Positions 2 through 55,769 are shown, counted from the first letter of the whole stretch. The stretch: DNA of 63,821 nucleotides, filler included, from Chrysochromulina tobinii (GCA_001275005.1; 6 parts of 6 records of this genome joined end to end with filler, not necessarily neighbours in it), one strand, 5' to 3'. Translations and numbers: made by a program. The notes: a model not told the origin generated them from the sequence alone.

Positions 2-3000
2 CTTGGCGCGCTTGACGGCGACGGGCTTGTGGCGCAGCCAGAGCGGCAGCGCCTCGGGCCGCAGCGACGACAGCGCATCCGCGGTGAAAACGTTGCCGTA
101 GCCGCCGCTGCCGATGAGCCGCTGCTCTCCAAAGCCGTCCGTCGCCGCCGCAAGCTCGGCGAGCGTGAGGGCGACAGCTGCAGGCGGCACCGAGGGTGCC
201 TCCGGGGCCTCCGATGCCCGCGCCGCTTCTGCGGATGCTGAGCCTGTGGCAGGCGGCGACTGTGTGACCTCGTGCAGCGACAGCTTCGACAGGCTGGCTT
301 GCATCTTCATCTCCGCCGCGTGCTTGCGACGCAGCTTCTGGCTCTCCTGCTTGCGCTTCTTGTGCAAGCGCTCGCGCATCGCCCTCGCCTCCGCCAACAC
401 ACCCTCGCTCGCGAGTGCGTGGTGCTCCTCGATCGCCCCGACCAGGCCCTCGTACTGCGCGGCCGCCATGGCCACTCGCAGCGCCTCGTCGGCGGTGGCA
501 GAAGTAGCAGGAGGACACACGCCGTCCTCGTCGCCAGCCGCCGCCGACACCTCGTCGTCCGCCTCGGCGCTGCCACTCGCGGCCGCTGACGCACTCGCTA
601 CCGGCGCTCTCGCCTCGCTCGCCCCTGGCTGCTTGGCTTTGGCTTTCTTGCTCGCTTTCTTCGTGTGCGCCTGCTGCTTGTGCGCAGCCTCCGCCTCCTC
701 CTCAGCCAGCAGAGCCGCAGCGGCAAGCTCGGCTGCCCGCTCGGCTGCCGCACGCTCCGCACGCTCCGCACGCTCCGCACTCGACACTGGAGCGACCGCA
801 GCGATCGTCGCAGGTGCGCGGCCCCTGCTGCGCAGAAATCTTGCGATGACGGTGTGGCCTTGGGCCTCTGCGACATCGAGGGCTGTGCCCGCAGCGACTC
901 GCAAGTCGGTGCGTGCGCCAGCATGCACGAGCAGCTTGACTATGTCGTCGTGGCCTTTCTTGCAGGCGGTGTGCAGAGGCGTGGCGCCCTTGCGGTCTGA
1001 CTGGTTGACGGCGGCGTGGGCGGCGAGCAGCAGCCGCACGCAGCCGCCGTGCCCTTTGATGCATGCGATGAGCAGAGGCGTGCTGCCGTTGCTGGTTGCC
1101 TGGTCGACGACGGCGTGGGCGGCGAGCAGCAGCTGCACGCAGTCGCCTTCGCCTTTGTTGCAGGCGGCGATCAGAGGCGTGGTACCGTTGCGGTCTGCCT
1201 GGTTGACGGCGGCGTGGGCGGCGAGCAGCAGCTGCACGCAGCCGCCGTCGCCTTTGTTGCAAGCGATGAGCAGAGGCGTCATGCCGTTGCTGGTTGCCTG
1301 GTCGACGGCGGCGTGGGCGGCGAGCAGCAGCCGCACGCAGTCGCCGTCGCCTTTGATGCAGGCGTTGATCAGAGCCGTGAGGCCGTTGCGGTCCGCCTGG
1401 TCGATGACGGCGTGGGCGGCGAGCAGCAGCTGCACGCAGTCGCCGTCGCCTTTGTCGCAGGCGGCCATCAGAGGCGTGGTGCCTTTGCTATCCGCCTGGT
1501 CGACGGCAGCGTGGGCGCCGAGCAGCAGCCGCACGCAGTCGCCGTCGCCTTTGATGCAGGCGGCGTGCAGAGGCGTGGCGCCGTTGCTGGCTGCCTGGTC
1601 GACGGCGGCGTGGGCGGCGAGCAGCAGCTGCACGCAGCCGCCATCGCCTTTGCTGCAGGCGTAGATCAGAGGCGTGGCGCCATCACTGGCTGCGTGGTCG
1701 ACGGCGGCGTGGGCGCCGAGCAGCAGCTGCACGCAGCCGCCGTCGCATTTGTCGCAGGCAGCGAACAGAGGCGTGACGCCTTTGATGTTTGCCTGGTCGA
1801 CGGCGGCGTGGGCGGCGAGCAGCAGCCGCACGCAGTCGCCGTGCCCTTTGTCGCAGGCAGCGTAGAGAGGCGTGGTGCCGCTGCTGTCTGCCTGGTCGAT
1901 GACGGCGTGGGCGGCGAGCAGCAGCCGCGCGCAGTCGCCGTCGCCTTTGATGCAGGCGTAGATCAGAGGCGTGGCGCCGCTGATGTCTGCCTGGTCGACG
2001 GCGGCGTGGGCGGCGAGCAGCAGCCGCACGCAGCCGCCGTCGTATTTGTTGCAGGCGACGATCAGAGGCGTGAGGCCGTTGCTATCTGCCTGGTGGACGG
2101 CGGCGTGGGCAGCGAGCAGCAGCTGCACGCAGCTGTCATCGCCTTTGAGGCAGGCGGCGAGCAGAGGCGTGGTGCCGTCACAGGCTGCCTGGTCGACGGC
2201 GGCGTGGGCGGCGAGCAGCAGCCGCACGCAGCCGCCGTGGCCTTTGTCGCAGGCGGCGATCAGAGGCGTGCGGCCGTTGCTGCCTGCCTGGTCGATGACG
2301 GCGTGGGCGGCGAGCAGCAGCTGCACGCAGTCGCCGTCGCCTTTGATGCAGGCGGCCATCAGAGGCGTGGTGCCGTTGCTGTCTGCCTGGTCGACGGCGG
2401 CGTGGGCGGCGAGCACGAGCTGCACGCAGTCGCCGTCGCCTTTGATGCAGGCGGCGAGCAGAGGCGTGACGCCGTTGCTGGCGGCCTGGTCGACGGCGGC
2501 GTGGGCGGCGAGAAGCAGCCGCACGCAGATGCTGTCGCCTTTGATGCAGGCGGCGTGCAGAGGTGTGCCGCCGTCGCTGTCTGCCTGGTCGACGGCAGCG
2601 TGGGCGCCGAGCAGCAGCCGCACGCAGTCGCCGTCGCCTTTGATGCAGGCGGCGTGCAGAGGCGTGACGCCGTCGCTGTCGGCCTGGTCGACGGCGGCGT
2701 GGGCGGCGAGCAGCAGCTGCACGCAGTCGCCGTGGCCTTTTTCGCAGGCGGCGAACAGAGGCGTGCCGCCTTCGCGGTCTGCCTGGTCGACGGCGGCGTG
2801 GGCGGCGAGCAGCAGCTGCACACAGTCGCCGTGGCCTTTGTCGCAGGCGGCGATCAGAGGCGTGGTACCGTCTCTGTCTGCCTGGTCGACGTTGGCATGG
2901 GCGGCGAGCAGCAGCCTTGTGCACTTAGGGTGACCTGTCTCACATGCACTTAGCAGGCAACGGCCGAGGTGGGCCGCTCCTTCGACGCTGTCGATGAAGC

Positions 3001-3073
3001 CCACGGCCGTGGCCTCGTCGCCGCAATGGAGCGCGACGACCATCGCGTGGGCCGTCTCGATGCTGCCACTCAT
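2..3073 (-). CDS. Ankyrin-repeat (20 TPL-type repeats plus caps) protein fused to an IRAK/Pelle/RLK-like Ser/Thr kinase; 3'-partial, runs off the window start
   Basis: Not in the ORF track because it has no stop in the window. ATG at 3073 reads MSGSIETAHAMVVALHCGDEATAVGF..., then 99-nt repeats DQADxxGxTPLxxACxKGxGDCVQLLLAAHAAV, an Ala/Lys-rich linker, then LTLAELAAATDGFGEQRLIGSGGYGNVF...KPVAVKRAK (Gly-rich loop and VAVK lysine) at about 170-2. Confidence 0.9.
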   Translation of the reverse strand, partial: MSGSIETAHAMVVALHCGDEATAVGFIDSVEGAAHLGRCLLSACETGHPKCTRLLLAAHANVDQADRDGTTPLIAACDKGHGDCVQLLLAAHAAVDQADREGGTPLFAACEKGHGDCVQLLLAAHAAVDQADSDGVTPLHAACIKGDGDCVRLLLGAHAAVDQADSDGGTPLHAACIKGDSICVRLLLAAHAAVDQAASNGVTPLLAACIKGDGDCVQLVLAAHAAVDQADSNGTTPLMAACIKGDGDCVQLLLAAHAVIDQAGSNGRTPLIAACDKGHGGCVRLLLAAHAAVDQAACDGTTPLLAACLKGDDSCVQLLLAAHAAVHQADSNGLTPLIVACNKYDGGCVRLLLAAHAAVDQADISGATPLIYACIKGDGDCARLLLAAHAVIDQADSSGTTPLYAACDKGHGDCVRLLLAAHAAVDQANIKGVTPLFAACDKCDGGCVQLLLGAHAAVDHAASDGATPLIYACSKGDGGCVQLLLAAHAAVDQAASNGATPLHAACIKGDGDCVRLLLGAHAAVDQADSKGTTPLMAACDKGDGDCVQLLLAAHAVIDQADRNGLTALINACIKGDGDCVRLLLAAHAAVDQATSNGMTPLLIACNKGDGGCVQLLLAAHAAVNQADRNGTTPLIAACNKGEGDCVQLLLAAHAVVDQATSNGSTPLLIACIKGHGGCVRLLLAAHAAVNQSDRKGATPLHTACKKGHDDIVKLLVHAGARTDLRVAAGTALDVAEAQGHTVIARFLRSRGRAPATIAAVAPVSSAERAERAERAAAERAAELAAAALLAEEEAEAAHKQQAHTKKASKKAKAKQPGASEARAPVASASAAASGSAEADDEVSAAAGDEDGVCPPATSATADEALRVAMAAAQYEGLVGAIEEHHALASEGVLAEARAMRERLHKKRKQESQKLRRKHAAEMKMQASLSKLSLHEVTQSPPATGSASAEAARASEAPEAPSVPPAAVALTLAELAAATDGFGEQRLIGSGGYGNVFTADALSSLRPEALPLWLRHKPVAVKRAK
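930..2915 (-). repeat. Coding tandem array of 20 x 99-nt ankyrin repeats
   Basis: AGAGGCGTG (reverse complement of the TPL codons) or a close variant recurs every 99 nt from about 976 to about 2857. Confidence 0.95.
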
Positions 3074-3237
3074 GACGGAGTTTAGGTTCTTAGAATGGAA
3101 AAACTCCGAGAGAACTCGGCGAGAGAAGAAAAAAGTCTCTTTAGGTACCGAAGTTTGATGTCTGTTCTCCTATGTACCTGTGCACTGAAAGAACACTTTT
3201 ACGATTTTCGCGGCTCGGCGCTTCCGATCGAGTGCCG

Positions 3238-6200
3238 ATGCGGGCCGCCTCGGTTCTCACCATGCTCCTGATCCAGCACGCACACGGAGCTGCCGTGACG
3301 ACGCCGCGAGTCCGTCGCGTTCCCACCTTGACCCGTGCAGAGGTCGCTCCGCCGCTCACCTCGAAGCGTGCGCCCGAGATCGTGCTCGCGACACTCGACG
3401 GAGGGCAGTTCAATAGCACCGCCTCGCTGAGCCGACCGGTGCTCTTCAACGTGTACGATCCAACGTCCGGCTTCAGCACGTGCCTCTGGCAGTGCAACCA
3501 GTCCATCGACGAGCTCATCAAACGCGCGGGGCCCAAGGGCTCGCCACTCGGGACTGCGCCGAGCTCCAACTTGGTCTTCTTGTCTTACGACGCAGCGGCC
3601 ACCGACGACGTGGCGGCGCTCTCGGCGCTCATCAACGGCCGGCTCGACGCTCTCAACGTCACCGATCCGGCCATGCGTGCCGAGTGGGCTGCCCGGCTAT
3701 TCTTCGCGACCGCGCCGGCGACGGACGCGGCACCGCTCGCTGCGACACTCTCGGCTTGGCCGACGACGACCGACGAGATCGTCCTCTCCAACGGCACGCT
3801 CAACACGACGCTTCCGCGGCTCGACCCACGCTACGATTGGATTGGCTGGGCGTTCGACCCGTCGCAGCTCGGCGGGCCGCTCCCGCTTGCCTACCTGGGC
3901 GATGGGTGTGTCGATCGGGCGCTCAACACGACGCTGCCGAACCTGGCGGGCCTAGTCGCTCTGGTCTTCAACGAGACGTCGTATGGTGCGGGGCACACGC
4001 GACCAGATGCATGCTGATTGCATGCTGATTGCATGCTGATTGCATGCTGATTGCGTCCCTCATCAGGTGCGGGGCACACGACGTGCTCGTACTTTAGGAT
4101 GGTGGAGACGGCCATGGCGACCAACGCGTCCGCCCTCATCGTCGTCGCCTCGCCCGGCCTGCCACCCATCGACATGAACTGTGAAGGTGCGGCACAGTGC
4201 AACAACGTCAACGTCGGCTTGCCTGCGACGATGGTCAGTGCTACTGCCGGTCAGACGTTGTACGACGCGATCAACGCGACGGCGGCGACGGGGTCGGCCG
4301 CCTATGTCACCTTCACGACCGCGGTCTCGCGCGGCAGGAACGCGGGCATCTCGGCCGCCGGAGATTGGATCCAGATTTGGGGAGGGTCGGGGGCAGGCGC
4401 GTCCAGCCCGGCCCTCGACCTCGCTGCTGATTGCATTCCGATTGCATTCCGATTGCATGCTGATTGCATGCTGATTGCATGCTGATTGCATGCTGATTGC
4501 ATGCTGATTGCATGCTGATTGAATGCTGATTGCCTCCCTCATCAGGTGCGACTAGCCCGGCTGGCGGTGTGGACGGCAACCCAGGTGACCCCAGCTGCCT
4601 TCTGTACCCGCGGATGAGTTTCATTGCCTGGGCGGGGCGCTTTGAGATCTATCGGCAAGCGCTCGCCGCCAATGTGGCCGCGCGCCCGGCAGGCTCGATG
4701 TCTCTCACGCTCTTTCGGAACGAAAGCATTCGCCCCTTATTAGGCGACTGCTATGCGTCTCCGCCGTGGGGATGCGGACCGAGCGTACAGCTGCAGGTGC
4801 CGCCGCTGCCCCATCAAGGGAGCCTGCAGCTCGACCTCGCGCTCGGATGCGCGGGCGACACCGACGTGACGTGTGAGCAGTGGGACTACGTGGTGCAGCT
4901 GCGCGCCTGCTGCCTGCCTTCCGGCCTGAGCGCCATCCTGAGCGCTGCTAGTGCGGCTGGCGTCGAAGGTCCGCAGTGCGACGCACAGAGCGGCAGCGAG
5001 ATTGGGCGATGGATCACCTCGTTCTCACGCGGTGTCGGGCGCTGGCACACGGACGTGACGGCGCTCGCACCGGTGCTCACCGGCCGCTGGTGCAACTTCA
5101 CCATGTACACGGTGCCGTGGGAGGGTAACCAGGGATTGATACCGTGGATTGCGACTCTCTCGCTCGTGGTGCTGACGGTGCCGGCTGCGCCGCCGCCGCC
5201 GCCGATGCCGCCAATGCCGCCGATGCTCGCCCTGCCGATACTCGCCCCCGCCACCAGCGCCACCGCCGCCACCGCCCCCGCCACCATCGCCACCGCCCCC
5301 ACCGCCACCATCGCCACCGCTCCCATCGCCTCTACCGCCGTCTTTTCCCCCATCCCCACCGCCACGTCCCTCGCCTCCACGTCCACAGCCGGTGCGACTC
5401 AGGGCACGCCCGTCGTGTATCAGCCGTGGGGCGCCGTGAGCTCAAATCTGGGCGGCATCGAGAGTGTGTTCCAATGGATCTTCTTCAACCAGTCCTACAA
5501 CGCACTCTTCCCGCCCTTTGCCTTCTCCGTGCCCAACGGTAGCAAGGTGCTGCTCATGGCGACGATCACTGGGCATGGGAACGATAACAATGGCTGCGGC
5601 GAGTTCTGCGCGACAGAACATCGCTTCTCGGTCAACGCGCAGCCGGCGCACGTCAAGCGCCAGCTGCTGCCCATCACGGACCCGCAGCTGGGTTGTGCCG
5701 ACGAGGTCGACACGGGCGTGACGCCGAATGAGTACGGCACGTGGCTCTACGGTCGCAACGGCTGGTGCAACGGACGGGAGGTGGTGCCGTGGGTCATCGA
5801 CCTGAGCGACGACATAGGGCTCACAGGTGAGGCGGCGTTGATTGCCCCTGATGGCCTGCCTTGCATGCAAGTGCTCACCACAGCGCTGGGCTCACAGGTG
5901 AGGCGGTCATCACCTACGAGGGCCTCTGGTGCCCCAATGCCAGCTCCTGTGTGCAGCCGAACCCGGGCCCTCCGGACGAGTGGTCACAGGTACGTTGATT
6001 GCCCCTGATGACCTGCCTTGCATGCAAGTGCTCACCACAGCGCTGGCCCTCCGAACGAGTGGTCACAGGCTATGCCGGTCATGATGCTCAGCGTCTACTT
6101 GATCGTGACGCCGCCGGCGGCTCCACCCGCGCCTTCCTCGCCCGCGCTGCCGCTCGCCGTCATCCTCTCGGCGAGCCTCGGTGGTGCTCTTGGGCTTGCT

Positions 6201-7512: not shown

Positions 7513-7960
7513 ATCAACATGTGAAATCCAGCCCCTCTTTTCTCATTGTGAATGGGGGCTTCCACGCCGAGCGTGAGTGGGGGCGCCCGCGCCGGGCCGG
7601 TGAGCGCCTCCCACGCACGCCTTTTCGGGGCTTGTGGGTGTGTGTCTGGCCGAGTGGGTGTGTGTGCTGACGAGCAAACATCTCGTCTTCCCACAGCTCG
7701 CGGAAGCAGAAGTGCGTCCACAGCCATGGTAAGTGTCCTGTGGGGTGCTTCACTTCCGTGTGGTGGTTACAAAAAGTTGGGAAACCTCAGGGGGGGGCGT
7801 TGCCCCCCAGGGAGGGGGGGTGGCCTCCCCCGGAGGGGGGGGCCACTTAGGCCACGTGTTTAGGGGCCAGGTGTGTGTGTCTGCCTGAAACGAACGAACG
7901 AAGCCCGCGCCGGGCCGCCCCGAGGAAGGGGAAGGGGAGGAGAGTGTGAAATCCCTCGCG

Positions 7961-9698
7961 ATGGACGCGAGTGGCAGCGCGCGCGCCGAGGCCGTCGACG
8001 CGATGTTCGACGCGCTCCGTCGCGGTGACGAGGCCAAGGCCGTGGGCTTCATCGACAGGGTGACAGGAGCGGCCCACCTCGGCCTTTGCCTGCTTCGTGC
8101 ATGTGAGACTGGTCACCCTACGTGCACGAGGCTGCTGATCGCTGCCCACGCCGCCGTCGACCATGCAGACAGCAACGGCCTCACGCCTCTGCTCGCCGCC
8201 TGCATCAAAGGCGACGGCGGCTGCGTGCAGCTGCTGCTCGCCGCCCACGCCGCCGTCGACCAGGCAGACAGCAACGGCAAGACGCCTCTGATCGCCGCCT
8301 GCCTCAAAGGCGACGGCGACTGCACGCAGCTGCTGCTCGCCGCCCACGCTGTCGTCGACCAGGCAGACAGCAACGGCATCACGCCTCTGATCTTCGCATG
8401 CATCAAAGGCCGCGGCGTCTGCGTGCAGCTGCTGCTCGCCGCCCACGCCGCCGTCGACAAGGCAGGCAGCAACGGCCTCACGCCTCTGATGCAAGCCTGC
8501 TATGTAGGCCACGGCGACTGCGTGCAGCTGCTGCTCGCCGCCCACGCCGCCGTCGACCAGGCAACCAGCGACGGAGCCACGCCTCTGATCTACGCATGCA
8601 TCGAAGGCCGCAGGGACTGCGCGCAGCTGCTGCTCACCGCCCACGCCACCGTCGACCAGGCAGACCGCGACGGCGGCACGCCTCTGATCTACGCCTGTAT
8701 TTATGACCACGGCGACTGCGTGCGGCTGCTGCTCGCCGCCCACGCCGCCGTCGACCAGGCAGGCCGCAACGGCCGCACGCCTCTGAACCACGCCAGCCAT
8801 ATAGGCCACGGCGACATAGTCAAGCTGCTCGTGCATGCAGGCGCACGCACCGACTTGCGATGCGGTGCGGGCACAGCCCTCGATGTCGCAGAGGCCCGAG
8901 GCCACACCGCCATCGCAAGATTCCTGCGCAGCAGGGGCCGCGCACCTGCGACGATCGCTGCGGTCGCTCCGGTGTCGAGTGCGGAGCATGCGGCAGCCGA
9001 GCGGGCAGCCGAGCTTGCCGCTGCGGCTCTGCTGGCTGAGGAGGAGGCCGAGGCTGCGCACACGAAGAAAGCCAAAGCCAAGCAGGCAGGGGCGAGCGAG
9101 GCGAGAGCGTCGGTAGCGAGTGCGTCAGCGGCCGCGAGTGGCAGCGCCGAGGCGGTCGACGCGATGGTCGACGCGCTCCGTCGCGGCGACGAGGCCAAGG
9201 CCGTGGGCTTCATCGACAGGGTGACAGGAGCGGCCCACCTCGGCCTTTGCCTGATTCGTGCATGTGAGACTGGTCACCCTACGTGCACGAGGCTGCTGAT
9301 CGCTGCCCACGCCGCCGTCGACCATGCAGACAGCGACGGCGGCACGCCTCTGATCTACGCATGCATCAAAGGCCGCGGGGCCTGCGCGCAGCTGCTGCTC
9401 GCCGCCCACGCCGCCGTCGACCAGGCAGACCGCGACGGCGGCACACCTCTGCACGCCGCCTGCATCAAAGGCGACGGCGACATAGTCAAGCTGCTCGTGC
9501 ATGCTGGCGCACGCACCGACTTGCGATTCGCTGCGGGCACAGCCCTCGATCTCGCAGAGGCCCACGGCCACACCGTCATCGCAACATTCCTGCGCAGCAG
9601 GGGCCGCGCGCCTGCGACGATCGCTGCGGTCGCTCCGGTGTCGAGTGCGGAGCGTGCGGCAGCCGAGCGGGCAGCCGAGCTTGCCGCTGCGGCTCTGC
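7961..9698 (+). CDS. Ankyrin-repeat protein, paralogue of 2-3073, with an internally duplicated cassette (7 + 2 TPL repeats); 3'-partial at the gap
   Basis: ORF 7946..9754 with ATG at 7961. Same N-cap (GDEAKAVGFID...AAHLGLC), repeats and C-cap (GTALDVAEARGHT) as the minus-strand gene; the cassette restarts at about 9135. Confidence 0.9.
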
Positions 9699-9798
9699 NN
9701 NNNNNNNNNNNNNNNNNNNNNNNNNNNNNNNNNNNNNNNNNNTTAATTAATTAANNNNNNNNNNNNNNNNNNNNNNNNNNNNNNNNNNNNNNNNNNNN
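9699..9798. other. Artificial contig spacer (also at 17988-18087, 29280-29379, 49368-49467, 55465-55564)
   Basis: Identical 44N + TTAATTAATTAA + 44N each time; the 12-mer has stops in all six frames. Confidence 0.97.
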
Positions 9799-9839
9799 TA
9801 GGGTTAGGGGTCAAAAGAGGAGAATGAGAGAAGAAATGA

Positions 9840-10023
9840 CCCTAACCCTAACCCTAACCCTAACCCTAACCCTAACCCTAACCCTACCCTAACCCTAACC
9901 CTAACCCTAAGAACCCTAACCCTAACCCTAAGAACCCTAACCCTAACCCTAAGAACCCGAACCCGAACCCGAACCCCGAACCCGAACCCCGAACCCGAAC
10001 CCGAACCCGAACCCGAACCCTAA
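9840..10023 (+). repeat. Telomere-type (CCCTAA)n tract degrading into CCCTAAGAA and CCCGAA variants
   Basis: Read directly; lies about 40 nt from a contig start. Confidence 0.9.
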
Positions 10024-10277: not shown

Positions 10278-13200
10278 TCACCCTTCTTGGTGAACGCGAC
10301 CGGCTGTTCGCAGTGCGTGGATAAACGAGACAAGCACCCAGCGGAAGTTGGCCGCTGCGCACACGGTTTGAAAGCCCAGAGCGTCCGTGCTAGCAGGCAG
10401 CATCTGCCGCCGGAGGGACTTGCGGATATTGATCACACTCTGACGGTCGGGCTCATGTTGGCAAAATGCCGTTTCGAGCTTATCATCGGTCTGCAGCAGC
10501 CACCCGGGCGTCGTGTGAGAGCTCACAGCAGGGTCGCTTGAGTTTACGATGCGCTGGGTAAAAGCTGAGGCGCTGAAGCCGTGCAGGCACCACATGGACT
10601 CGAAGTAAGTGCATCGATGGTCGAGCATGGGCGCATCGGGCAGCACGACGGTTTTAATGCGGAAGTGGGTGTTGGCGAAGCGAGCCCACCAGACATTCTG
10701 TTCCGCCTTGCGGCCCTCCTCCCAGTCGATGCTCGTCCAATCCCAGAGCACAAGATCCTCATCAAAAGCTTCATTATCCCTATCCAGCACTGCGACCAGC
10801 TTTTCGAGCCGATGGCGCTCCTTGTCTGGATGCTTCTCTTCGGCCCATCGGTAGTCTAGGCAGTAGAGCTGCACGTTGCTCGGCGGAGCGCCCACGTGTA
10901 GCGCTTTGGCCGGGGCGTGCTTTCGCTTTGGCACAACAAGCTGCTCCTTGTACCATCGACGCAGGAAGCCGACCCGCACCCAGGCAATATTCAGCCTGCT
11001 GCACGTTTCATTGAAGCCGGCGACGTCCCATCGCGGGTCGCGTTCCTCCTCAGGCTTTTTAATGAGCGTGTGGCGAGACGCTCGGGTGGATGGCTTGGAA
11101 GCCGCACAGCCCATCAGCAATGGACCGCGGTACCGCTTGGAAGAGATGAAATTGGAAGATAAGTCCAGCCAGTGCAATGTTCTGCCAGAGAGCGCCTCGG
11201 CGAGAGCCTTGCCGCCCTCATCCCCCAGCCCGTTGCTGTTGAGGCTCAGCTGTGTCAGCGTCGTGTTTGTCCGGAGCGCCATGGCGAGCGAGCGGCCGCC
11301 GGCATCGCCCAGCTTGTTACCGTTGAGGCTCAGCTGCGTCAGCGTCGTGTTCGTCTTGAGCACCTCGCCGATCTCCTTGCCGCTCTCCTCGCCGAGCTCA
11401 TTGCTACCCAAGTCGAGCAGCTCCGCCTCAACAGCAACGGGCTGGGCGATGCGGGCGGCTGCGCGCTCGCGGTGGCGCTCCAGACGAACACAACGCTGGC
11501 GCAGCTCGACTTGGGTGGCAACGAGCTCGGCGCGGAGAGCGGCAAGGCGATGGTCGAGGCGCTCAAGACGAACACGACGCTTCGTACGGTTGCGTTGGAC
11601 GGCGATGTTCTCTCGATCGCGGAGATCACCACAGCGGCAAGAATTACGCTTTCGGAGAAGCGCTTGGGCGATGCGTCGGGGATCGTGATCGCGCACCTAG
11701 TCACACGTCACCGGTCTTTGACGCGGCTTGACTTGAACAGCAACAAGCTGGGCGACGCGTGTGGCTGCGCGCTTGCCGAAGCGCTCAAGACGAGCACGAC
11801 CCTGACGCAGCTCGACTTGGGTGGCAACGAGCTCGGCGCGGAGAGCGGCAAGGCGATGGTCGAGGTGCTTGAGACGATCACGACCCTGACGCAGCTCGAC
11901 TTGGGCGACAACGAGCTCGGCGCGGAGAGCGGCAAGGCGATGGTCGAGGCGCTCAAGACGAACACGGCGTTGACGCAGCTCGACTTGGGCGGCAACGAGC
12001 TCGGAGCGGAGTGCGGCAAGGCGATGGCCGAGGTGCTCAAGACAAACAGGACGCTGAGGCATCTGAGCCTCAACGGCGCCAAGATGGGCGATGCGGGCGG
12101 CTGCGCGCTCGTGGTGGCGCTCCAGACCAACACGACGCTGGCGCAGCGTTAGAGTCGGGTTGAACTCGATGCACTTGGCAATCACAATTGCTGATGCATC
12201 TTCCAGGCTCTTCCAGGAGTAGTCCAGGAAATGAACTGGAACAGTGCCCTTCAGCTGCTCAATGTTAAGCTCAAACCCATCGATGTTCATCTTTTTAAGC
12301 ATTGTCATTAACTGCAGGTCAGACCCAATCAGGATGGCGTCGGCGGGTTGGAGGCTCTGGCCCGAGAGGTTGGCCTCCGTCTGGTCGCGCGTCATGCCCG
12401 AGAGCATGATGCAGTTCTCCGTGCCGATCTTGGCGAGCATCGTGGCCGACTTAATGTCGAGATTGTTCTTGAGCAGGCTGCAGTGTTTCAGCTCTGTGTT
12501 CTTCATCATGGCCGCCAGCACGATCCACACCGTCTTGGGGTCGCCGCCGAGCTTCTGCGAGAGGTCGAGCGTGTTGCCCGTCACCCCGGCCGTGCACAGC
12601 AGCCCACGGCCAAAGGCGTCGCCCATCTCGCTGCCGAACGTGACCACGTTGGCCCATAACGCCGGCCATTGCCACGGCGGCGGCGACCCCTCGGGGAGGC
12701 GGTACTTTCCCGAGCAGATGGCGCGCGCTGCAAAGTACTCTTGGAAGGAGTGGTGCGCCGACTGCATCTGGATCGGCTCGACCTGCAGCAGGCTGAGAAT
12801 AGGGAGCCTATCCTGCCCCACGCGCTCGCGAACCTGCGCGACCGCCGCCTGCTTCTCGTCGCGCAGCGCCTTGACCGCACTGCGCAGGGCAGGAAGGCGC
12901 CTCGCGTCCGCTCTCGCCATCTGCGCCCGGCAAGCAGCTTCATCCAGCCCGGACGATGCGAGCTGCTCGGGGTTCAGGTACCCTGTTGTGGTGCCGTCCG
13001 CCAACTTGACCTTGTATGGCTGGCTGTCCTTGTAGTCCTGGACAATCTCGCCGCGTTGGCCCTTCCGCTCGCCCTCCAGCAGCTCCACGTAGTGGCCCAC
13101 CTCCGCCCGGCCCTTGAACGTCTGGAAAGGGTTCGCCACCTTCGCATCCAGGTCGGCGAGCGCGCTCGCCGGCGCAAAGGCGCCCAGCGCCGCGCGGAGG

Positions 13201-16200
13201 AGCTGCACGTCGGTGATCACGCGCGTCTGCGCCACGTGCGCCTCGAAGAACACGGCTTCCAGCAGCATGCGCCTTTCTGCCGTCCCGCCGCCGCCGCGCG
13301 CGAGCATCACGTCCGATGCGATCGCGTACAGCTCGGCGACCGTCTTCGGCATGCCCAGCCCTTTGCGGATCTCGAAGACCGACGCGACCATCGAGAGCAT
13401 CAGCGGGTTGGCCGTGACGCGATGCAGCGTCGTCGGCGCGTCGGGGTCCGTGCTCGTTGGCATGCGCTCGACAAAGGTCATCAGCTGCTTCACGTCCCCC
13501 TCATTCCCCAGTCGCTGCAGCAGCGCCTGCTCTTGCTGCGCCTCGGTCAGCGGCGCCAGGTTCAGCAAGCGGAATCCGGAAAAACGCGCCTCGTCGACGC
13601 CCGCCGGCCGCGAGGTGCAGAGCATCACGTGGCCCTGCGGTGCCAGCACCTCAACAATATGCTGCTCAATCTCGGCGCGCTTGGCTCCGGCCTCGTTGAG
13701 CCCGTCGAGGAGGAGCAGCGCTCGCCGCGCCGTCATCGCCTGGCGCAGCATGCGGTACACCTCGGGCCTCTCAGTGAGGCAGAGGTACGCGTCGATCCAG
13801 TTCCAGTGCGACGCGAACGCGTCTGGTGTATCGCGCAGCCTCGCCTGGAGCAGCTGCACCTTGATCACGATGGGCACCAGCTCGGCGCGATCGAGCGCCA
13901 GGACCACCGCCTGGCTGATGAGCGTCGTCTTGCCCGCTGCGGGCGGCGCGGTGAGCAGCGCGGCTCCCGGGGCAGTGATCGCCTCGCCGAAGCTTCGTGA
14001 AGCGTGTAGCGAGTGCAGCCAATCGCTCAGGCCGCGCACGTCGTGCACGCCAGCCAGATCAGCATCTCCCATCACTTCGATGGCCACGCACTGCTGCAGC
14101 GCATCCAACGGATTGCCGGAGAGCGCATCGAAGATCTGCGAGTGCTGCGTGCGCAGCTCCCGCGTCCACCACCCGCTAAGCGCCTCGTAGGCGGCGTGCG
14201 GCAGCTCGCGCGGCGCGTGGTTCCACGGGTGCAGCGTGAGCGTGGCTGGTGACTCGCCGCTGCCCTCCAAGAAGGTGAGGCCATGGCAGAGGCCGTCGGC
14301 GCCCGCCGTTGCCACGTTGGCATCGCGCCACCCGGCGGCCGTACGCACGGTGAGCGGCTGGCCGGCGGCGTAGCGCCGGGCGCCGAGCGCGCCGCTGGAG
14401 AGCAGCGCCGTAGTGACCATGGCCTCGGGCAGCAGCCTCTCGACCGCCGCACGCACCTTGCCGAGCGCGGCTTGGAGCTGCGTCAGATCGCCGTCACCAA
14501 AGAGCGCCGCCGCTGCGTCTACGCACGACCACACAGCGCCGCCCGCCTCGCGCGCCACGTGCGCGATCGTTTGGCACCGCGCTGCGCCGTCGGCAATCGC
14601 GCGCGCTCGCTCGCCGACGGCGAGCAGCGCCGATTCCGACTCCATCCGCCGAGCATCGTCCGCCAGGCGGCGTGCAGGCTCGACGAGGTTGTGGAGCGCA
14701 CGCGCATCGCCGATAAACGCGGCGTCCCAGCCGGCAGCGGGCGGCCGCCACGGCAGCACCGCCTGGCTGCATCGGTCGTAGGCGAGCTCGAACTCATCGC
14801 CGCCCGTGACGGCGGCAGCGACACGCCCCCCGGTCGCATCGACGACGCCAAAGCGCGGCCCGTCGCCCGCGCCGCTGCCCTGCGAAGAGAGCAGGAGCAG
14901 CGGCTGTCCCTCGGCAAGGCGCAGCGGCGACGCGGCAGGCGCATCGACCTGCGGCAGCGGCTCCGCCGGCGCGGCCGTCGCGCTGTGCGACGCCATCTGA
15001 AGCGCCCCGAGCGTCTTTGTCAGCGCGCCGACGGTGTTGTGCACGTACTCCTTATAGAGGCTGATGACCTTGTGCTTTTCGCCCTTGCTCGTGAACTTAG
15101 ACTTGTTGATCCGCTCAATGTCAGCGGCTACGTCGAGCTCGATCGCCGTAACCTCAACCGCTGTCGCGTCCGCGTCGCTGCTCAGCGCGAAGACCTTGGG
15201 CTGCAGCTGATCGAGGGGCTTCCGGAGCGCGGGGTAGGCCGTCAACCGCTTTATGAGGTCTCGGCTCAACGAGTCTTCCAAGCAGCACCTGCGCGGGAGA
15301 GTGCGGCAGGCGCGTGAGGGTTATGAAAGGGGATCCAATCACATCTGCAGAATAGGACGGGCAGCACTCACCATCCACGAGAAAAGTACGGCGTCTCATT
15401 GTAGAGCGTGTCGAGCCCCTCGCATAGGCCGGGCCATGAACCCGCGTTCTTGGCCGCGACGGCAGACTCGTGCGAGGCAAAGCGCACAATGGGGGGGCTG
15501 TGGCTGAGGTCGCAGCTCTCAATAGTTCCGAACCCGATGAGCGCCGCGCGTACCGCGCTCTCGTCGACGTTTGCGCTCAACATGAACAAGCAGACAACGC
15601 CATCGAACTCGGCTGGCCGGGGTGGGATCTCCTCGATCTGGAGCACGGTCGTTGCGAGGATCGACGCAAACAGCAGATTCAACGCCCCCCCCTTGAGTGC
15701 CATCGAAAAGAACTCATCCTGCTCCGGGGTCCTTGGTCTCTGATACAGCGATCCAAAGTCCCAGAACAAGGCTTCAATTCGAATTGCCATCCCCTTCAGA
15801 GCGCGTCGAAGCGACGCGGATGCGCGAGCCGTCCGGATCTGGATCGCCTGGACTGAGCCAGCCGTAGGTAAGCGCGCCGATGCTCCGATCTCCACGCTCG
15901 ACGAGCGCTGCGGCCTCTTGAGGGTTCAGCAGTGGCGACGGCGAGACCCCGCTCTTTTCAATCTCCTCGAGCGCCTGCCGATTCGGCATCTTGAAGTTGG
16001 CTGGCTGCATCAGTAGCCACTTGACGCATAGCAACCGAACCGCTCCTCTCAGAAGGACTAGTATGATGATTTTGTCGAGCTCTGTGAGCGCCTGACGCAG
16101 CTTTGGCGGCAGCGGTGTACCTGGAGCTGCCTCCGGCACGTCAAGGCCGAGACTCACGAGCTTCCTCTTGTGTTGTTCGCCCACATCGTCGAGAAACACC

Positions 16201-16994: not shown

Positions 16995-18087
16995 GAGCGC
17001 GAGGAGTGTTCTAGTCGCCGTTCCGTGAGTTAAGTTCCTGTGAGTTGGAACACTCACGTGACATGGAGAATGGCCTTCCCCCGTGTCTCAGTGTGTATGT
17101 GTGTAGGTACGCGAAGCGTTACTGTGGGGAAACGTGAGGGGTAGGCGTTCGCTGGATTTGCGAGTCTCCGACGCGTGTCGCGTGGCTTGCTTGTGCCCGC
17201 CTGTGTGAGCGTGGCCTGCGGTGTTACCCGCAAGCAGTGTAAGCTGATTGAGAGACTAATCTGTCCTCGAACTTGGAACGTGGTGACGTCTGTGAAAAAA
17301 GATTCTAAAGTGAAAGGTAAGTACGTGTTTTTTTCTGTTTTTGCTGTTTATGCGGAAAAAATGGCGGCGAGGAAGCCTAATCCGGCCACCAATGGCCTCG
17401 GCTCGGATGGGGTCGACGGGTTGCAGCGCTGGGGCGACGTGCCGCCGACCGCGGTGGAAGCCGATCTGTCTGAAGTGTTCCTTCTCGAAGACATGGTCAC
17501 TTCGGCCTTCGTGATGAATGAGGAGCTTCATATCCTCTCGTGGTAGGGCGACGTGACGACGCTCAAGGTGGACGCGGTGGTGACTTGCAATAACGATGGC
17601 ATGAACGAGCGCGCGGGTGTTTCGGGCCAGCTCTTCGTTGCCGCTGGCCCGCAGCTCGACGAGAAAGCCACAGCCGAGAAGGCGGCGGCAAACAAGGCAG
17701 CAGACGCGAAAGCCGCTGCCGAAAAGGCCGCAGCAGCGGCGGCGGCGGAGGCGGCGCTTCGTCGTCATATGCTGTGCGTGCTTCCGTCGAGATGGCGGCG
17801 GCGGAGGCAAAGGCGGTGGCCGAGAAGGGGGCGGCGGAGGCCAAGGCGGCGGCCGAGAAGGCGGCGGCCGAAGCCTCAGTCGCGGCCAAGAAGGCAGCAA
17901 AGAAAACCGCGAACGGCGAACCGCGCGCGCGGGCCCCGCGGGCGCGCGCGCGCCCCGGGCAAGCGCCCCAGGGCGCCAGGAGGGCGCNNNNNNNNNNNNN
18001 NNNNNNNNNNNNNNNNNNNNNNNNNNNNNNNTTAATTAATTAANNNNNNNNNNNNNNNNNNNNNNNNNNNNNNNNNNNNNNNNNNNN

Positions 18088-20100
18088 CCCCCCGCGCCTT
18101 CTCCGCACATGCCCTCCGACGGCAGTCCCCCCGTCGATGGCATCTCGTCGACTCTCCCAAATATGGGTGGCAGCGACTCCACGGGCTCGTCTTGGCTCAC
18201 GTGGACCCAGGTGCTCAAGGCGACGCTCGTCTTGATTGCGATCTGATTGCGATCTGATTGCGATCTGATTGCGACTGGATTGCGATCTGAGCGCGTCTGA
18301 TTGCGTCAGAGTGCGTCCCTCTCCCCTCTTGATTGCATGCATCATCAGCCTGAGGGCGTCCCTCTCCCCTCTTGATTGCGCCCCTCCTCATCTTTGATTG
18401 CGTCCCTCATCACCTCTGATTGCGCCCCTCATCACGTGTGCATGCGTCCCTCATCACCTCTGATTGCGTCCCTCATCACGTGTGCATGCGTCCCTCCACA
18501 GAGTCGCGTCCAGCTGGGGCAGCACGCTGTCCCGGCATGGATGCTCACCCTCGGCGGCTTCGTGCTGCTCCTCATCGCGCTGTGCGTGCTTCTCGTGTGC
18601 TGCGGCTCGCCCAAGCGACGCAAGCTCACCATCCTAATGTGGTCACACCCGAATCCGGCCATGGGGCCCTTGTACATGCCCGACGAGATGCGCTGGGAGT
18701 TTGCCTTGGACATCGGGCTCGAGGCCCCCCCCTCGTTCTGCCGGGGCCTCGCGCTCCTCTGCTGCAGCAGCTGCAGCTGCAGCTGCTGCTGCTGCTGCTG
18801 CTTCCGAGGCGCGTGCGCGGTAGGGCGGCGCGCCGAGTCGGGCGTGGCCAGAGGCTCTCACGCCGGTAGAGGCGCCAAGATGGGCACTCGAGGCGCCAAG
18901 ATGGGCACTCGACGAGCGGCCGATAACGGCGGCGGCGGCAGTGGCGGCGGCAGTGGCGGTGGCAGTGGCGGTGGCAACTGTAGGGCCGGCACCGGCCGTG
19001 TCGCCCGCGACGGCGCCCGCGGAGGCGGCCGCGACGGTCGACCATGCGCGTCGCAGATCGTCGACTCGGCCGCCATCACCCTCACCGTCACCACCGCCGC
19101 CGTCTGCTCAGCACAGTCCACAGCGGCACAGGACACAGGCTACGACGCGCGCGGGCGCTTCAATCCACTTCGCCCGTCGAGGCTGCTCGTGCATTCAAAC
19201 CCAGCCATCCGTTGGTTCTATCAGCCGCCCGACGCGCCCTGCCTTCCGACGCGCGCGGCATGCCCACCACGGCGCGCGCCGTGCCCTCCGACGCGCGCGC
19301 CGCCCGAGGCCTATCACGCCGTCGACGCCGCCATTCGCCGTGCCGCCGCCCCTGGTGCCACGTGGTACCAGGACAAGGACGTCACCTGGTGCCACGGTTG
19401 CGACAAGGACGTGCCTTCAGTGGCGGCCGCGGCCGTGACTTTCGGACGTTCCAAGGACGTGACTTTCGGACGTTACAAGGACGTGACTTCTGTGGCGGCC
19501 GCGGCCGCCTCGTGCACGCACGCGCGCAAGTCGAGCAGACGACCTGGGACGAGTAGGTCCGCGTCGTCCCGGGCGCCGAAGCGTCACCCGTCGCCCGTCG
19601 CCCTTGAGGGTGAGATTGAGGGGGAGATTGTGGGGGAGATCTCGCTGCACGCGGGCGCCGTGGCGGGCGCTCCAACGCGGCGAAGCGCGTCGGGCGCGCG
19701 CCGTGCCCACCACGGCGCGCACCGTGCCCACCCCGGCGCGCACCCGGCACCTCGGGACACGACAGCGAGGCGGCCTGTGGAACGAAGCCCGACCTGTGGG
19801 GAACGAAGCCCGACCTGTGGGAACACGGCCTGTGGGGAACGAAGCCCGACCAAGCCGCCTGCCCTCGTTCGCATCCACCAGGAGCAGCAGGCCGCTGCTC
19901 AGCGCCGCTGTGAGGCCAACGCCGCCGCCGCTGTCTCCGCTGCCCGGGACGGCGTCTGCTCGGATCCAAACGGCCACGTGGTCCTCGCCCGGGACGGCGT
20001 CTGCTCGGAGCCCAGCCGCGGAGCTCACGACGACGATCTCCACAGGGGAGATCGAGCCGATCTCAGCAGGGGAGATCGAGCCGCCGCCGCCGTCTCCTCT

Positions 20101-29279: not shown

Positions 29280-29955
29280 NNNNNNNNNNNNNNNNNNNNN
29301 NNNNNNNNNNNNNNNNNNNNNNNTTAATTAATTAANNNNNNNNNNNNNNNNNNNNNNNNNNNNNNNNNNNNNNNNNNNNAGGACGGTCCGGGACGAGCCA
29401 GCATGGGCCGGGACAGGCGCCATTCGGATTTTTGGTTAGTGTCGCTAACCCCACTTTCTCTCTGACAGTGTGTTCTTATTTATACGGACACATGAGAGAG
29501 GGTGCGGAGGCGCAGGATTCCTCATTAACATTATTATTTTGTCCTTAAAAATACACCGCGAATCCACATTCGTTTCGTCAAATTCCTCTGCTTTGCGAGC
29601 TTTGTGTGTGCTCGAAATCGTAAATGCCTAATCATTGTTTCGAGCCCTTTAATCGTAAATCGATGACCTGGTTCAGCCGAAATCTGGAGCGCGTCCGCCG
29701 GCGCACATTCGTATCGTCCAATTCTCTTCAATTCCTAGTTTATAGGATACCTATTTGGTCCCTGGTTGCAGAGAGAGGTGTCAGAGGTTTCACGATTCTT
29801 ATGTACAGACACGGCGGCGCTCGCACACTCACACGGGGTTCGATGAAACCGTCTACCCGCACGAGCCGTCCAATCGTCCGAGCCGCCAAGAAATGTACGG
29901 AGCTGGCGCCGGGCCAACCACGATCCAGTCCTAGTTTCTGGTAAGCACGATAGTC

Positions 29956-32650: not shown

Positions 32651-32998
32651 CTTTTGAGGGAAAAGGATCGCATGTTCGATGTTGACCATGAGAGCATGAG
32701 TGGGTGGTGAAGAAGACCGCTAACGCTCACCGAAGCATGCAGCCCACGCTTCCCAACATCACCGTGAGAGCCCCGGCCCTCCCAGAGTGTGTACGCGCAG
32801 CAATCGCCGGCGCGCGACCTACATGGTGCACATGACGCTGCCCCACTGATGGGGAAAGTCGATCTTCATTCTGAGTTTCAAACTTATGAAAGTACCGGTC
32901 GAGTTCCGGGCAATGGCGTGGACGTGCTTGCAGACTCTGAGGTGAAACCAGACTGCAACTAAGCAGAACGTGAGCGCGAGCGCGCAGCCGCTGTGCGT

Positions 32999-49238: not shown

Positions 49239-49687
49239 AGATCAACAAAGATAAACGGGCCGGTGGTCGGAGTTCTTTTAATAGCGCCGAGTTGGGACGA
49301 GTCGGTGAGGACGATCTGCCTTGGTCTCAGTTCGATTCAACCTAAATCGGGTCACACAATTCTAGGTNNNNNNNNNNNNNNNNNNNNNNNNNNNNNNNNN
49401 NNNNNNNNNNNTTAATTAATTAANNNNNNNNNNNNNNNNNNNNNNNNNNNNNNNNNNNNNNNNNNNNGCGCGTCTGAATGCATGCAAAAAACAATGAAAT
49501 GCATATGTATGCACACGCATGCATACGAATGCACATGAATGCGTATGTTAAAAAACAACACCACTTTCGTTAAAAAACAACACTCCACCCATTAATTCGC
49601 GAGGGCGCGAGCGCGCCGCGTCACCAGTACCGGGCGAGGGCTGCGCGCCCGCGACGGCGCCCAGCGCAATAGATATCCGACGCGTCG

Positions 49688-55203: not shown

Positions 55204-55769
55204 TTGTATGCGTCGATAGCTTCCCACTGTGATCGGCTCATCGAGTGCGCCAACGTGTACTCTGCCTTGGCAAGCTCCTCCTCTTTGGCCTTGCGCTCCT
55301 TGCGCACGTCGGCGTCGCGCCGCCACGACGATCGCGAGCTCGGAGGGCGAGGTCATCTTGTTGCTAGACACTCAAGGGTCTCTCCACAGTCCGGACGAAA
55401 CGCGCCGTTTTGGACCCCGCATGCAATTGGGGGAATGGGGGGGGGAGGGGGGGGGGGGGGGGGGNNNNNNNNNNNNNNNNNNNNNNNNNNNNNNNNNNNN
55501 NNNNNNNNTTAATTAATTAANNNNNNNNNNNNNNNNNNNNNNNNNNNNNNNNNNNNNNNNNNNNTAACGGCAACGGCCGGCCTCCCACCACCTCTCTCAG
55601 GAGGTTATAATAATGCTAAACTTACGATATGACTTCACCAACCATCAATAAGGATTCGAGCCGAAATGACCTCACTTTTACCCTACCCGGAACCCGCCCA
55701 CGGGCGAACGACGCGACGCCGCCGCCGTGCCCGCGAAGGGGCCACCTCGACTCCGGGTCCGGCAGTAGT

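Follow-up and report, generated by a model that had tools for sequence, protein, structure and literature searches.

What could be the use of a protein in which twenty ankyrin repeats are almost the same at the DNA level and yet differ, unit after unit, at the same few codons? The question is raised by a gene located at the left edge of a stretch of 63,821 nucleotides from Chrysochromulina tobinii (GCA_001275005.1; this whole stretch is called the window below). The original prediction, made from the sequence alone, described the array as DARPin-like, compared it with the repeats of fungal NLRs and saw in it a rapidly diversifying recognition receptor, possibly directed against viruses. The answer that we favour, with a probability of roughly 0.55 and on the basis of sequence comparisons, is that this cap-flanked, hypervariable array of 20 repeats would be the ligand-recognition arm of an intracellular receptor, to which the relatives of the gene add a kinase of the RLK/Pelle/IRAK type and a predicted HEPN RNase.

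The repeat array and its variable codons

The gene is carried by the minus strand, as an open reading frame (2..3073) of 1024 codons starting with an ATG at 3073, and it is partial, its 3' end lying beyond the left edge of the window. After 32 N-terminal residues (2978..3073, minus strand, as for all features of this gene), in which no hydrophobic leader was seen by eye, comes an N-terminal capping ankyrin unit (AAHLGRCLLSACETGHPKCTRLLLAAHANVDQA; 2879..2977), followed in 33-codon register and without interruption by 20 ankyrin units of exactly 99 nucleotides each; cap and units together occupy positions 899-2977. Nineteen of these units (units 0-18; 998..2878) are near-identical, as seen with Tandem Repeats Finder, from the register and from matches to a 36-nucleotide piece of the scaffold, and the last internal repeat (unit 19; 899..997) has a divergent helix 2 (…GHDDIVKLLVHAGARTDLR), a form that is kept as the last unit in the paralogues as well. 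A C-terminal capping unit (800..898) closes the array, whose limits, caps included, are 2977 (start of the N-cap) and 800 (end of the C-cap). Downstream is a linker of about 220 residues, rich in Ala, Glu, Lys and Ser (134..799), in which no Pfam domain was found and whose nucleotide identity is 92-96% to five paralogues and 80% to a sixth one, and finally the start of a protein kinase (2..133), recognised in the translation by its glycine loop GSGGYG and its beta-3 lysine motif VAVK.

The array had been announced as 20 units with near-identical scaffold at 930..2915; this description holds, apart from the strand, the array being coded on the minus strand, and from its length, which is slightly greater. 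Tandem Repeats Finder reports 944-2916 with a period of 99, 19.9 copies, 85% matches and 0% indels. The scaffold 36-mer has 20 minus-strand matches at an exact spacing of 99 nucleotides between 998 and 2914 (7 of them exact, none with more than 3 mismatches) and 9 further matches in a second paralogue (8132-9427); in shuffled sequence it had matches in 0 of 100 shuffles. The eight peptides originally quoted as examples are all present, in units 0, 1, 2, 6, 9, 11, 16 and 19. That these units are ankyrin repeats is clear from Pfam, which finds Ank_2 (PF12796) with an E value of 4.8e-251 in 21 stretches and PF00023 with an E value of 1.7e-111, all above gathering scores, and from the 33-residue consensus, since the unit table and the per-codon counts display G4, T6-P7-L8, A11, G15 and L22-24. 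Every unit also contains two cysteines, C12 (19/19 units) and C19 (19/19), which makes about 40 cysteines in the array (899-2878); consensus ankyrin repeats have Ala and Ile or Leu, respectively, at these positions. These cysteines may serve in core packing, in redox chemistry or in metal binding.

The variation is indeed concentrated at the same few codons, as had been claimed. Amino-acid entropy among units 0-18 is 1.5-2.7 bits at codons 1, 2, 3, 5, 9, 10 and 13 (the seven variable codons), about 1.0-1.4 bits at the semi-variable codons 16, 18 and 21, and 0-0.8 bits at the 23 remaining (scaffold) codons. Mean DNA identity between units is 86% overall, 94% at the scaffold codons and 62% at the seven variable ones, and the mean amino-acid identity of 73.8% (range 58-94%) is below the nucleotide identity. 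Where two scaffolds are closest, most of the differences fall in the variable codons: between units 2 and 13 there are 1 scaffold difference (of 78 nucleotides) and 3 variable ones (of 21), and between units 12 and 16 the counts are 3 and 11, respectively. Among 176 distinct units compared at the protein level, the entropy is highest at positions 5, 13, 9, 3, 14, 10, 2 and 1.

The comparison of nonsynonymous and synonymous change proposed with the original prediction did not reveal an even spread over codons with a ratio of nonsynonymous to synonymous substitution rates (dN/dS) at or below one. For the 19 units of the window array, the proportions of nonsynonymous (pN) and synonymous (pS) differences at the seven variable codons are 0.42 and 0.19, which corresponds to a dN/dS of 2.8, or of 5.3 when dN is divided by the dS of the whole unit; the same figures at the 23 scaffold codons are 0.046 and 0.091, hence 0.49 and 0.40. 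Raw divergence at positions 1 and 2 of the variable codons (0.458) is 4.3-fold that at the fourfold degenerate third positions of the scaffold (0.107), and minimum event counts obtained without any tree differ between the two sets of codons (Fisher p = 0.004), with 32 nonsynonymous and 5 synonymous events at variable codons and 14 and 13, respectively, at scaffold codons. For individual sites, parsimony counts on a FastTree tree (trees being approximate here because units recombine) were compared with the array-wide synonymous rate by a Poisson test, with Bonferroni correction (x33); we adopted this global rate because a binomial test against the synonymous changes of each site is underpowered. 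Sites 3, 5, 9, 10 and 13 lie above neutrality in the window array alone, and sites 1, 2, 3, 5, 9, 10, 13, 18 and 29 when 72 distinct units of eight arrays are pooled (two arrays in the window and six other loci), with ten scaffold sites falling below neutrality in the pooled set. The ratio of variable-site dN to unit dS is 1.8-5.3 in each of the eight arrays.

Shuffling of repeats was another part of the original prediction, and it agrees with what is seen among the paralogues. Unit number differs between genes, with 3-12 units in 24/34 homologues with units and 5-13 in paralogues of the same design assembled elsewhere, the 20 units of the window array being the largest number among the 36 sequences examined. 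Units also look like mosaics, all four gametes being present in 103 of 171 informative site pairs of the window array, scaffold-scaffold pairs included, a result that may in part reflect recurrent mutation. Scaffold distances are about equal within arrays (0.05-0.18) and between arrays (0.07-0.16), and in four arrays, including that of the window, nearest neighbours belonging to the same array exceed the expectation based on array size. Finally, when the window gene is compared with five paralogues, the linkers have a dS of 0.05-0.17, against 0.46 for locus L008, and units taken from different arrays have a scaffold pS of 0.06-0.14; for L008 this pS is only 0.14, the repeats being clearly closer than the linker. 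Taken together, scaffold distances, own-array neighbours, the L008 contrast and the four-gamete pairs fit local duplication of units combined with exchange of units, or of parts of units, within and between paralogues.

The second paralogue of the window (7946..9698, plus strand) has an N-cap, 7 units (8168-8860), a C-cap and a shortened linker before the contig end cuts it at 9698. In this gene the N-terminus restarts in frame at about 9152 and is followed by a 2-unit module (9329-9526); the restarted N-terminus is almost identical to the sequence from 7991 onward, and the junction falls in a shared 'SGSA..AEAVDAM' stretch. This in-frame tandem suggests that family members have recombined non-allelically or, alternatively, that the assembly is chimeric at this point. 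We did not use as evidence for recombination a homologue (P0008) that, by eye, joins the array of P0011 to the C-terminal half of P0003, short-read chimeras being as likely.

A haptophyte family with a kinase and a HEPN-like domain

Searching for homologues with the C-cap, the linker and the kinase start as a query, we found 34 proteins with the linker, one of them named for Chrysochromulina tobinii, and the more distant relatives include two proteins of Emiliania huxleyi. Full-length members share a common N-terminus, ankyrin units in variable number, the linker, the kinase and, at the C-terminus, a conserved stretch of about 120 residues. Metagenome contigs, when scanned, yielded 15 loci of the family, with a best nucleotide identity to the window gene of 88-92%; the window's own gene was not found among these 15. 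Judging from these sequences, the window gene belongs to a multigene family of haptophytes (Chrysochromulina, Emiliania), and the ankyrin-kinase family is a young one. A viral origin was considered and set aside: scans of viral contigs with the family alignment gave one weak kinase match (26% over 85 residues), and the C-terminal domain had no match in viral contigs in a pattern search of limited sensitivity.

The kinase of the full-length homologues is recognised by Pfam (Pkinase), and its catalytic motifs are well conserved among the 34 proteins: GxGxxG in 32, VAVK in 29, HRDxKxxN in 32 (with HRDFKPEN in 30), D[T/F]G in 31 and GY[LI]DP in 30. The closest relatives of known structure are SYMRK (5e-24), PBL2, RIPK, BIK1, FERONIA, BRI1, BAK1, IRAK1 (4e-19) and IRAK4, and neither Ire1 nor RNase L is present among the best 60, which are all of the RLK/Pelle/IRAK and CaMK types. 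As far as closest matches and motifs can place it, the family kinase is of the RLK/Pelle/IRAK type, with intact catalytic motifs.

The C-terminal region is more difficult to identify, and had no Pfam match in full-length homologues even at E <= 10. A profile search with this region retrieved 143 cluster representatives among 1.84 billion proteins. In the 36 of them that were scanned with Pfam, the domain is located behind the kinase in all 22 kinase-bearing hits; in one protein (P0086), 12 Sel1 repeats replace the ankyrin repeats ahead of the same kinase and HEPN-like C-terminus, so that sensor modules have apparently been swapped within the wider family. The family PF13643 (DUF4145), which is classed in the HEPN superfamily in a survey of this group (PMC3710099), appears below threshold in 4 of the 36 scanned hits, the best being P0117 with 23.0 bits for a cut-off of 23.1; at E <= 1 it appears in 13 of 34 domain-sized members (best E 0.0014), against 2 of 34 for the next family.

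The alignment of the domain is dominated by a motif 'LR[IV]W-R-N-x3-H', in which L, R, W, N and H hardly vary and which is present in 31 of the 34 homologues; this is a motif of the HEPN Rx4-6H type. It takes two forms among the 131 of 176 proteins that bear it: R-N-x3-H, in which the His is never preceded by an Arg (84 proteins), and [A/S/G]-N-x2-R-H (47 proteins). Two paralogues (L007:1018-1377 and L001:8734-9093) illustrate these mutually exclusive forms, W-R-N-A-A-S-H or W-A-N-A-A-R-H. The Arg is thus relocated and yet always kept (131/131), which suggests that it is functionally required.

An AlphaFold model of this four-helix domain, built from 34 sequences, has the topology of a helical bundle, with a pLDDT of 89. 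A structure search independent of Foldseek places 2hsb at the top (Z 9.0 over 98 residues, root mean square deviation 3.0 A), the further matches including the HEPN toxin 5yep (8.5), a Cas nuclease (8.1), YutE (8.1), HepS (8.0), an AMPylated HEPN toxin (7.9), AbiA (7.5), another HEPN toxin (7.1), Csm6 (7.0) and the HEPN domain of sacsin (6.3), and HEPN proteins make up about a dozen of the top 20, although Z scores up to 9 can, according to the tool's own note, be attained by helical bundles by chance. No RNase L or Ire1 chain is present among the structural matches listed, nor any KEN-type family in the Pfam lists of the homologues. Two other approaches were abandoned: look-alikes in the ESM Atlas (best score 0.89) pointed to no informative family, and comparison of the sequence profile with the PDB gave chance matches to designed or coiled-coil proteins (E 0.03-0.5). 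Three partly independent lines, namely the motif, a Pfam signal that is weak but consistent and an enrichment in HEPN folds, make it quite probable in our view that the C-terminal domain of the family belongs to the HEPN superfamily, and this domain is a putative RNase, as far as sequences and models indicate.

Receptor, neutral amplification or signalling scaffold

Could the variable codons simply be unconstrained surface sites of ankyrin repeats, in an array amplified recently and neutrally? The dN/dS above one would then be an artefact of depressed synonymous change (by codon bias or biased gene conversion), with neither diversifying selection nor a receptor role. Several observations go in this direction, and they weigh against our favoured reading. 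The GC content at third codon positions of the array is 0.88, so that constraint or bias probably acts on synonymous sites and inflates dN/dS; the linker dS is very low for five of the six paralogues; and the variable positions are those that vary in ankyrin repeats generally. The binomial test based on the synonymous changes of each site is significant at site 5 only in the window array, the event-count test reaches p < 0.05 in only three of the eight arrays (and is non-significant in five), and with a neutral rate three times larger, the Poisson counts leave only site 5 (window array alone) or sites 5 and 13 (pooled units) clearly above neutrality. Trees of recombining units of 99 nucleotides are unreliable, and such units are not independent. 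Moreover, in a young family recent amplification largely explains the near-invariant scaffold, without extraordinary conservation, and the metagenome loci L004/L009 and L005/L006, which come from different samples, are identical within pairs and so carry no information on strains. To this must be added the state of the window gene itself, which breaks off after the first 40 or so kinase residues, the body of the kinase and the HEPN-like domain being outside the window. The nearest continuation, locus L007, whose first 46 translated residues match exactly those at the end of the window's open reading frame and which runs on into the kinase, is that of another paralogue: we tried it as the missing 3' part (overlap 1-139, 2 mismatches) and rejected it, because the linker and the 3-unit array of its protein, P0006, differ from those of the window gene. 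We nevertheless regard neutral amplification as improbable. The 4.3-fold overall excess at variable codons would survive even a three-fold correction of the neutral rate, sites 5 and 13 exceed the neutral expectation 6-9 fold, position 9, usually the conserved His of TPLH, is hypervariable in the array, and the same sites recur in all eight arrays. A more technical objection, that mis-assembly of reads from many paralogous arrays gave the 20 units their present number and order, and possibly created some of the mosaics, appears to us very unlikely. It draws on the fact that the window concatenates contigs, with the neighbouring paralogue breaking at a contig end inside family sequence, and on the eight public runs (five RNA, three DNA, all consisting of short Logan contigs, so that bins without cover are uninformative), in which the array shatters into pieces of 30-150 nucleotides, no record spans it, the joints listed are few and come from single contigs with short sides, and array bins have a word depth that reaches about 100 times the value of the flank, so that many copies share these words. 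However, 22 units follow one another in an unbroken frame, with a period of exactly 99 nucleotides and no indel; paralogues assembled elsewhere have the same design; and exact unit-specific pieces of 80-150 nucleotides are present in the DNA runs of three studies and in RNA runs.

A different alternative accepts the array as a binding domain and denies it any role in immunity. The kinase family would be an ordinary one, active in stress or development, with the array as its adaptor or autoinhibitory domain; paralogues would bind different host partners, and the C-terminal bundle would be regulatory or dimerising, without nuclease activity. Housekeeping fusions of ankyrin repeats and kinases do exist, and the HEPN evidence consists throughout of sub-threshold matches or moderate Z scores: no Pfam match of the C-terminal domain reaches a gathering score, and Foldseek found nothing at E <= 0.001 with two models of this domain, all its matches having E > 0.1. 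Even so, the few rows to which Foldseek gives a high probability are HEPN proteins (2hsb, a Cas nuclease, HepT toxins and Cas13b), and such proteins dominate the top structural matches. In addition, the R/N/H motif is nearly invariant, with an Arg that moves and is never lost, and the family combines lineage-specific expansion and sensor swapping (Sel1 for ankyrin in P0086) with a site-specific excess of amino-acid change typical of genes involved in conflicts. An endogenous signalling scaffold is unlikely in our opinion.

The receptor that we favour would work as follows. The variable residues would line the concave groove of the ankyrin stack, at the hairpin tip (positions 1, 2, 3 and 5) and on one face of helix 1 (positions 9, 10 and 13, spaced i, i+1, i+4), a placement based on the register with consensus ankyrin repeats and on this helical spacing, and would form a long binding surface specific to each paralogue. 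Point substitutions, subject to diversifying selection, would create new specificities, and so would duplication, deletion and exchange of units through unequal crossover or gene conversion, within and between paralogues. Ligand binding would cluster the receptors and activate the kinase, and the HEPN-like domains would then form an active RNase dimer; as in RNase L and Ire1, the output would be RNA cleavage, phospho-signalling or both. All this supposes that the 3' part of the window gene, beyond the edge, has the architecture of the family. The ligands may be non-self proteins, for instance those of the giant viruses that infect haptophytes; an antiviral target of the window gene is a conjecture. 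The diversifying receptor originally proposed is supported in part, by the amino-acid excess in eight of eight arrays and by the immune-type kinase and HEPN-like domain of the homologues.

As for the window gene, its transcription is hinted at by exact, locus-specific pieces found in RNA runs of four studies: 2916-3066 and 918-1036 in run X14, 1007-1140 in X16, 1930-2013 in X11, and 1311-1430, 2890-3008 and 2979-3058 in X13. The 5' flank (3079-3192) has cover in none of the five RNA runs and in all three DNA runs.

Comparison with known systems and possible significance

How does this family compare with better known systems? Binz et al., in 2003, are said to have varied positions 2, 3, 5, 13, 14 and 33 in their DARPin library. 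Positions 2, 3, 5 and 13 of this set coincide with variable positions of the array; position 14 is an invariant Lys in the array and varies only family-wide, position 33 is conserved, and the array varies at positions 1, 9 and 10 in addition. The array also differs from DARPins in being natural and in having conserved cysteines at positions 12 and 19. The general plan is similar, a capped stack of near-consensus 33-residue repeats with variation at a few surface positions; the general design of such libraries is described in PMC8683736.

The likeness to fungal NLRs with highly conserved ANK, TPR or WD repeats (the NWD and HET-E/D proteins of Podospora; Dyrka et al. 2014, PMC4986451) is real in several respects: tandem repeats that form superstructures and are similar at the DNA level, a few codons per unit under positive selection (which also applies to the window array, with the caveat of the GC bias at third positions), an apparent pool of repeats common to paralogues, and unit numbers that differ between genes. 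However, the same paper gives for highly conserved repeats a criterion of at least 85% amino-acid identity over at least 100 amino acids (PMC4986451), and the units of the window array are 74% identical. The family also differs by its haptophyte host and by outputs consisting of a kinase and a HEPN-like domain in place of NACHT or NB-ARC; indeed, no Pfam match to these NOD domains was found in the window's open reading frame, nor in three full-length homologues at E <= 10. The original parallel with fungal NLRs cannot, in consequence, be extended to membership in this group.

The order of modules in the homologues, ankyrin sensor, kinase fold and a C-terminal domain probably of the HEPN superfamily, is that of RNase L, and the comparison with RNase L and Ire1 suggests by analogy that the RNase could be activated by ligand-driven dimerisation. 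In contrast, the family kinase is of the RLK/Pelle/IRAK type with intact motifs, being neither the pseudokinase of RNase L nor the kinase of Ire1, and the C-terminal domain resembles HEPN domains of the DUF4145 type and not KEN. RNase L differs further in that the family has a linker of about 220 residues between array and kinase, and in that its 9 repeats, which bind 2-5A, are conserved, whereas the 20 repeats of the window gene are hypervariable. We conclude that the gene encodes neither a fungal-type NLR nor an RNase L or Ire1, because a NOD is absent, the kinase is of RLK/IRAK type, KEN is undetected and unit identity is below 85%.

The motif of DUF4145-type HEPN domains has an R..GN...H-like spacing. 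The bacterial domains of this type, found in restriction and abortive-infection systems, resemble that of the family in being small, helical and endowed with conserved Arg, Asn and His, and in being fused to varied sensor or effector modules, Sel1 repeats included, as described in the consulted part of the survey (PMC3710099). The same part gives DUF4145 as 'Bacteria > Archaea, dsDNA viruses', without a kinase fusion, and mentions kinase fusion only for KEN (PMC3710099), whereas the domain of the family is eukaryotic, is located behind a kinase in all kinase-bearing hits and has Pfam matches below the cut-off. The words 'haptophyte' and 'Emiliania' are absent from the survey text as available to us (PMC3710099). 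With plant RLK/RLCK and animal IRAK proteins the family shares its best kinase matches and the GY[LI]DP motif of the activation segment; it differs from them by the lack of an extracellular or death domain, by DTG replacing DFG and by the fusion to ankyrin repeats and a HEPN-like domain.

A broader proposal, more tentative and in our view rather doubtful as it stands, is that haptophytes have an innate-immune receptor class of their own, in which a hypervariable, NLR-style sensor of ankyrin or Sel1 repeats is combined with a kinase of the IRAK/RLK type and a HEPN RNase of the DUF4145 type. This class would be a counterpart of RNase L by convergence; it would bind giant-virus proteins directly, lead to translation shut-off or cell death, and have its specificities renewed by unequal crossover among dozens of young paralogues. 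In the literature (supplements aside) we found no description of a haptophyte ankyrin-kinase-HEPN family. Haptophytes are major primary producers of the ocean, giant viruses control their blooms, and the way in which these algae sense infection is almost uncharted. If the proposal is true, a family in which a diversifying repeat sensor is coupled to a kinase of immune type and a likely RNase would provide concrete candidates for algal antiviral immunity. The 'ankyrin, kinase, HEPN' logic of RNase L would then be known from two independent cases, and receptor evolution by repeat shuffling, documented mainly for fungal NLRs, would reach another eukaryotic supergroup.

Other contents of the window

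The window consists of at least six separate contigs, joined by five identical spacers of the form N44-TTAATTAATTAA-N44, a six-frame stop linker (9699-9798, 17988-18087, 29280-29379, 49368-49467 and 55465-55564). Gene order across spacers is artificial, and the neighbours of the ankyrin genes past 9698 are not true ones, because the window concatenates contigs. The second contig piece begins with a telomere-like repeat (CCCTAA)n, degenerating to CCCGAA (9839-10023), possibly a chromosome end, and contains an NLR-like open reading frame on the minus strand (10281-15320) in which a Walker A-like sequence (PPAAGKTT) and the motif LLLLDGLNE accompany a NACHT match that is weak and below the cut-off (E 7.6e-4). 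This gene, which lies about 0.3-5 kb from the telomere-like repeat, also has RNI-type LRR_6 repeats with a period of 84 nucleotides. It would be tempting to see an 'immune gene cluster' in the ankyrin gene and this NACHT-like/LRR gene; we rejected this idea, since the contigs carrying them are joined by the N44-TTAATTAATTAA-N44 linkers and their adjacency is artificial.

Between the two ankyrin genes, on the plus strand (3145-6005), are found the N- and C-terminal domains of Peptide-N-glycosidase F (E 2e-7 and 1e-21), in a gene broken by probable introns that contain 11-nucleotide tandem repeats. Tandem repeats of 10-11 nucleotides, of the TGATTGCA/CTGATTGCGA type, are located between pieces of coding sequence at 4008-4054, 4425-4533, 18233-18305 and 38601-38703, and they probably mark introns. 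A satellite-like array (49683-52044) is composed of units of 141-156 nucleotides, in about 8 + 5 copies with 70-83% identity, in a stretch of lower GC content. Finally, another contig piece carries, on the plus strand (32963-41157), pieces of an ABCA-type transporter (ABC2_membrane_3, ABC_tran and the R1 domain of ABCA1), which are themselves ordinary neighbours.

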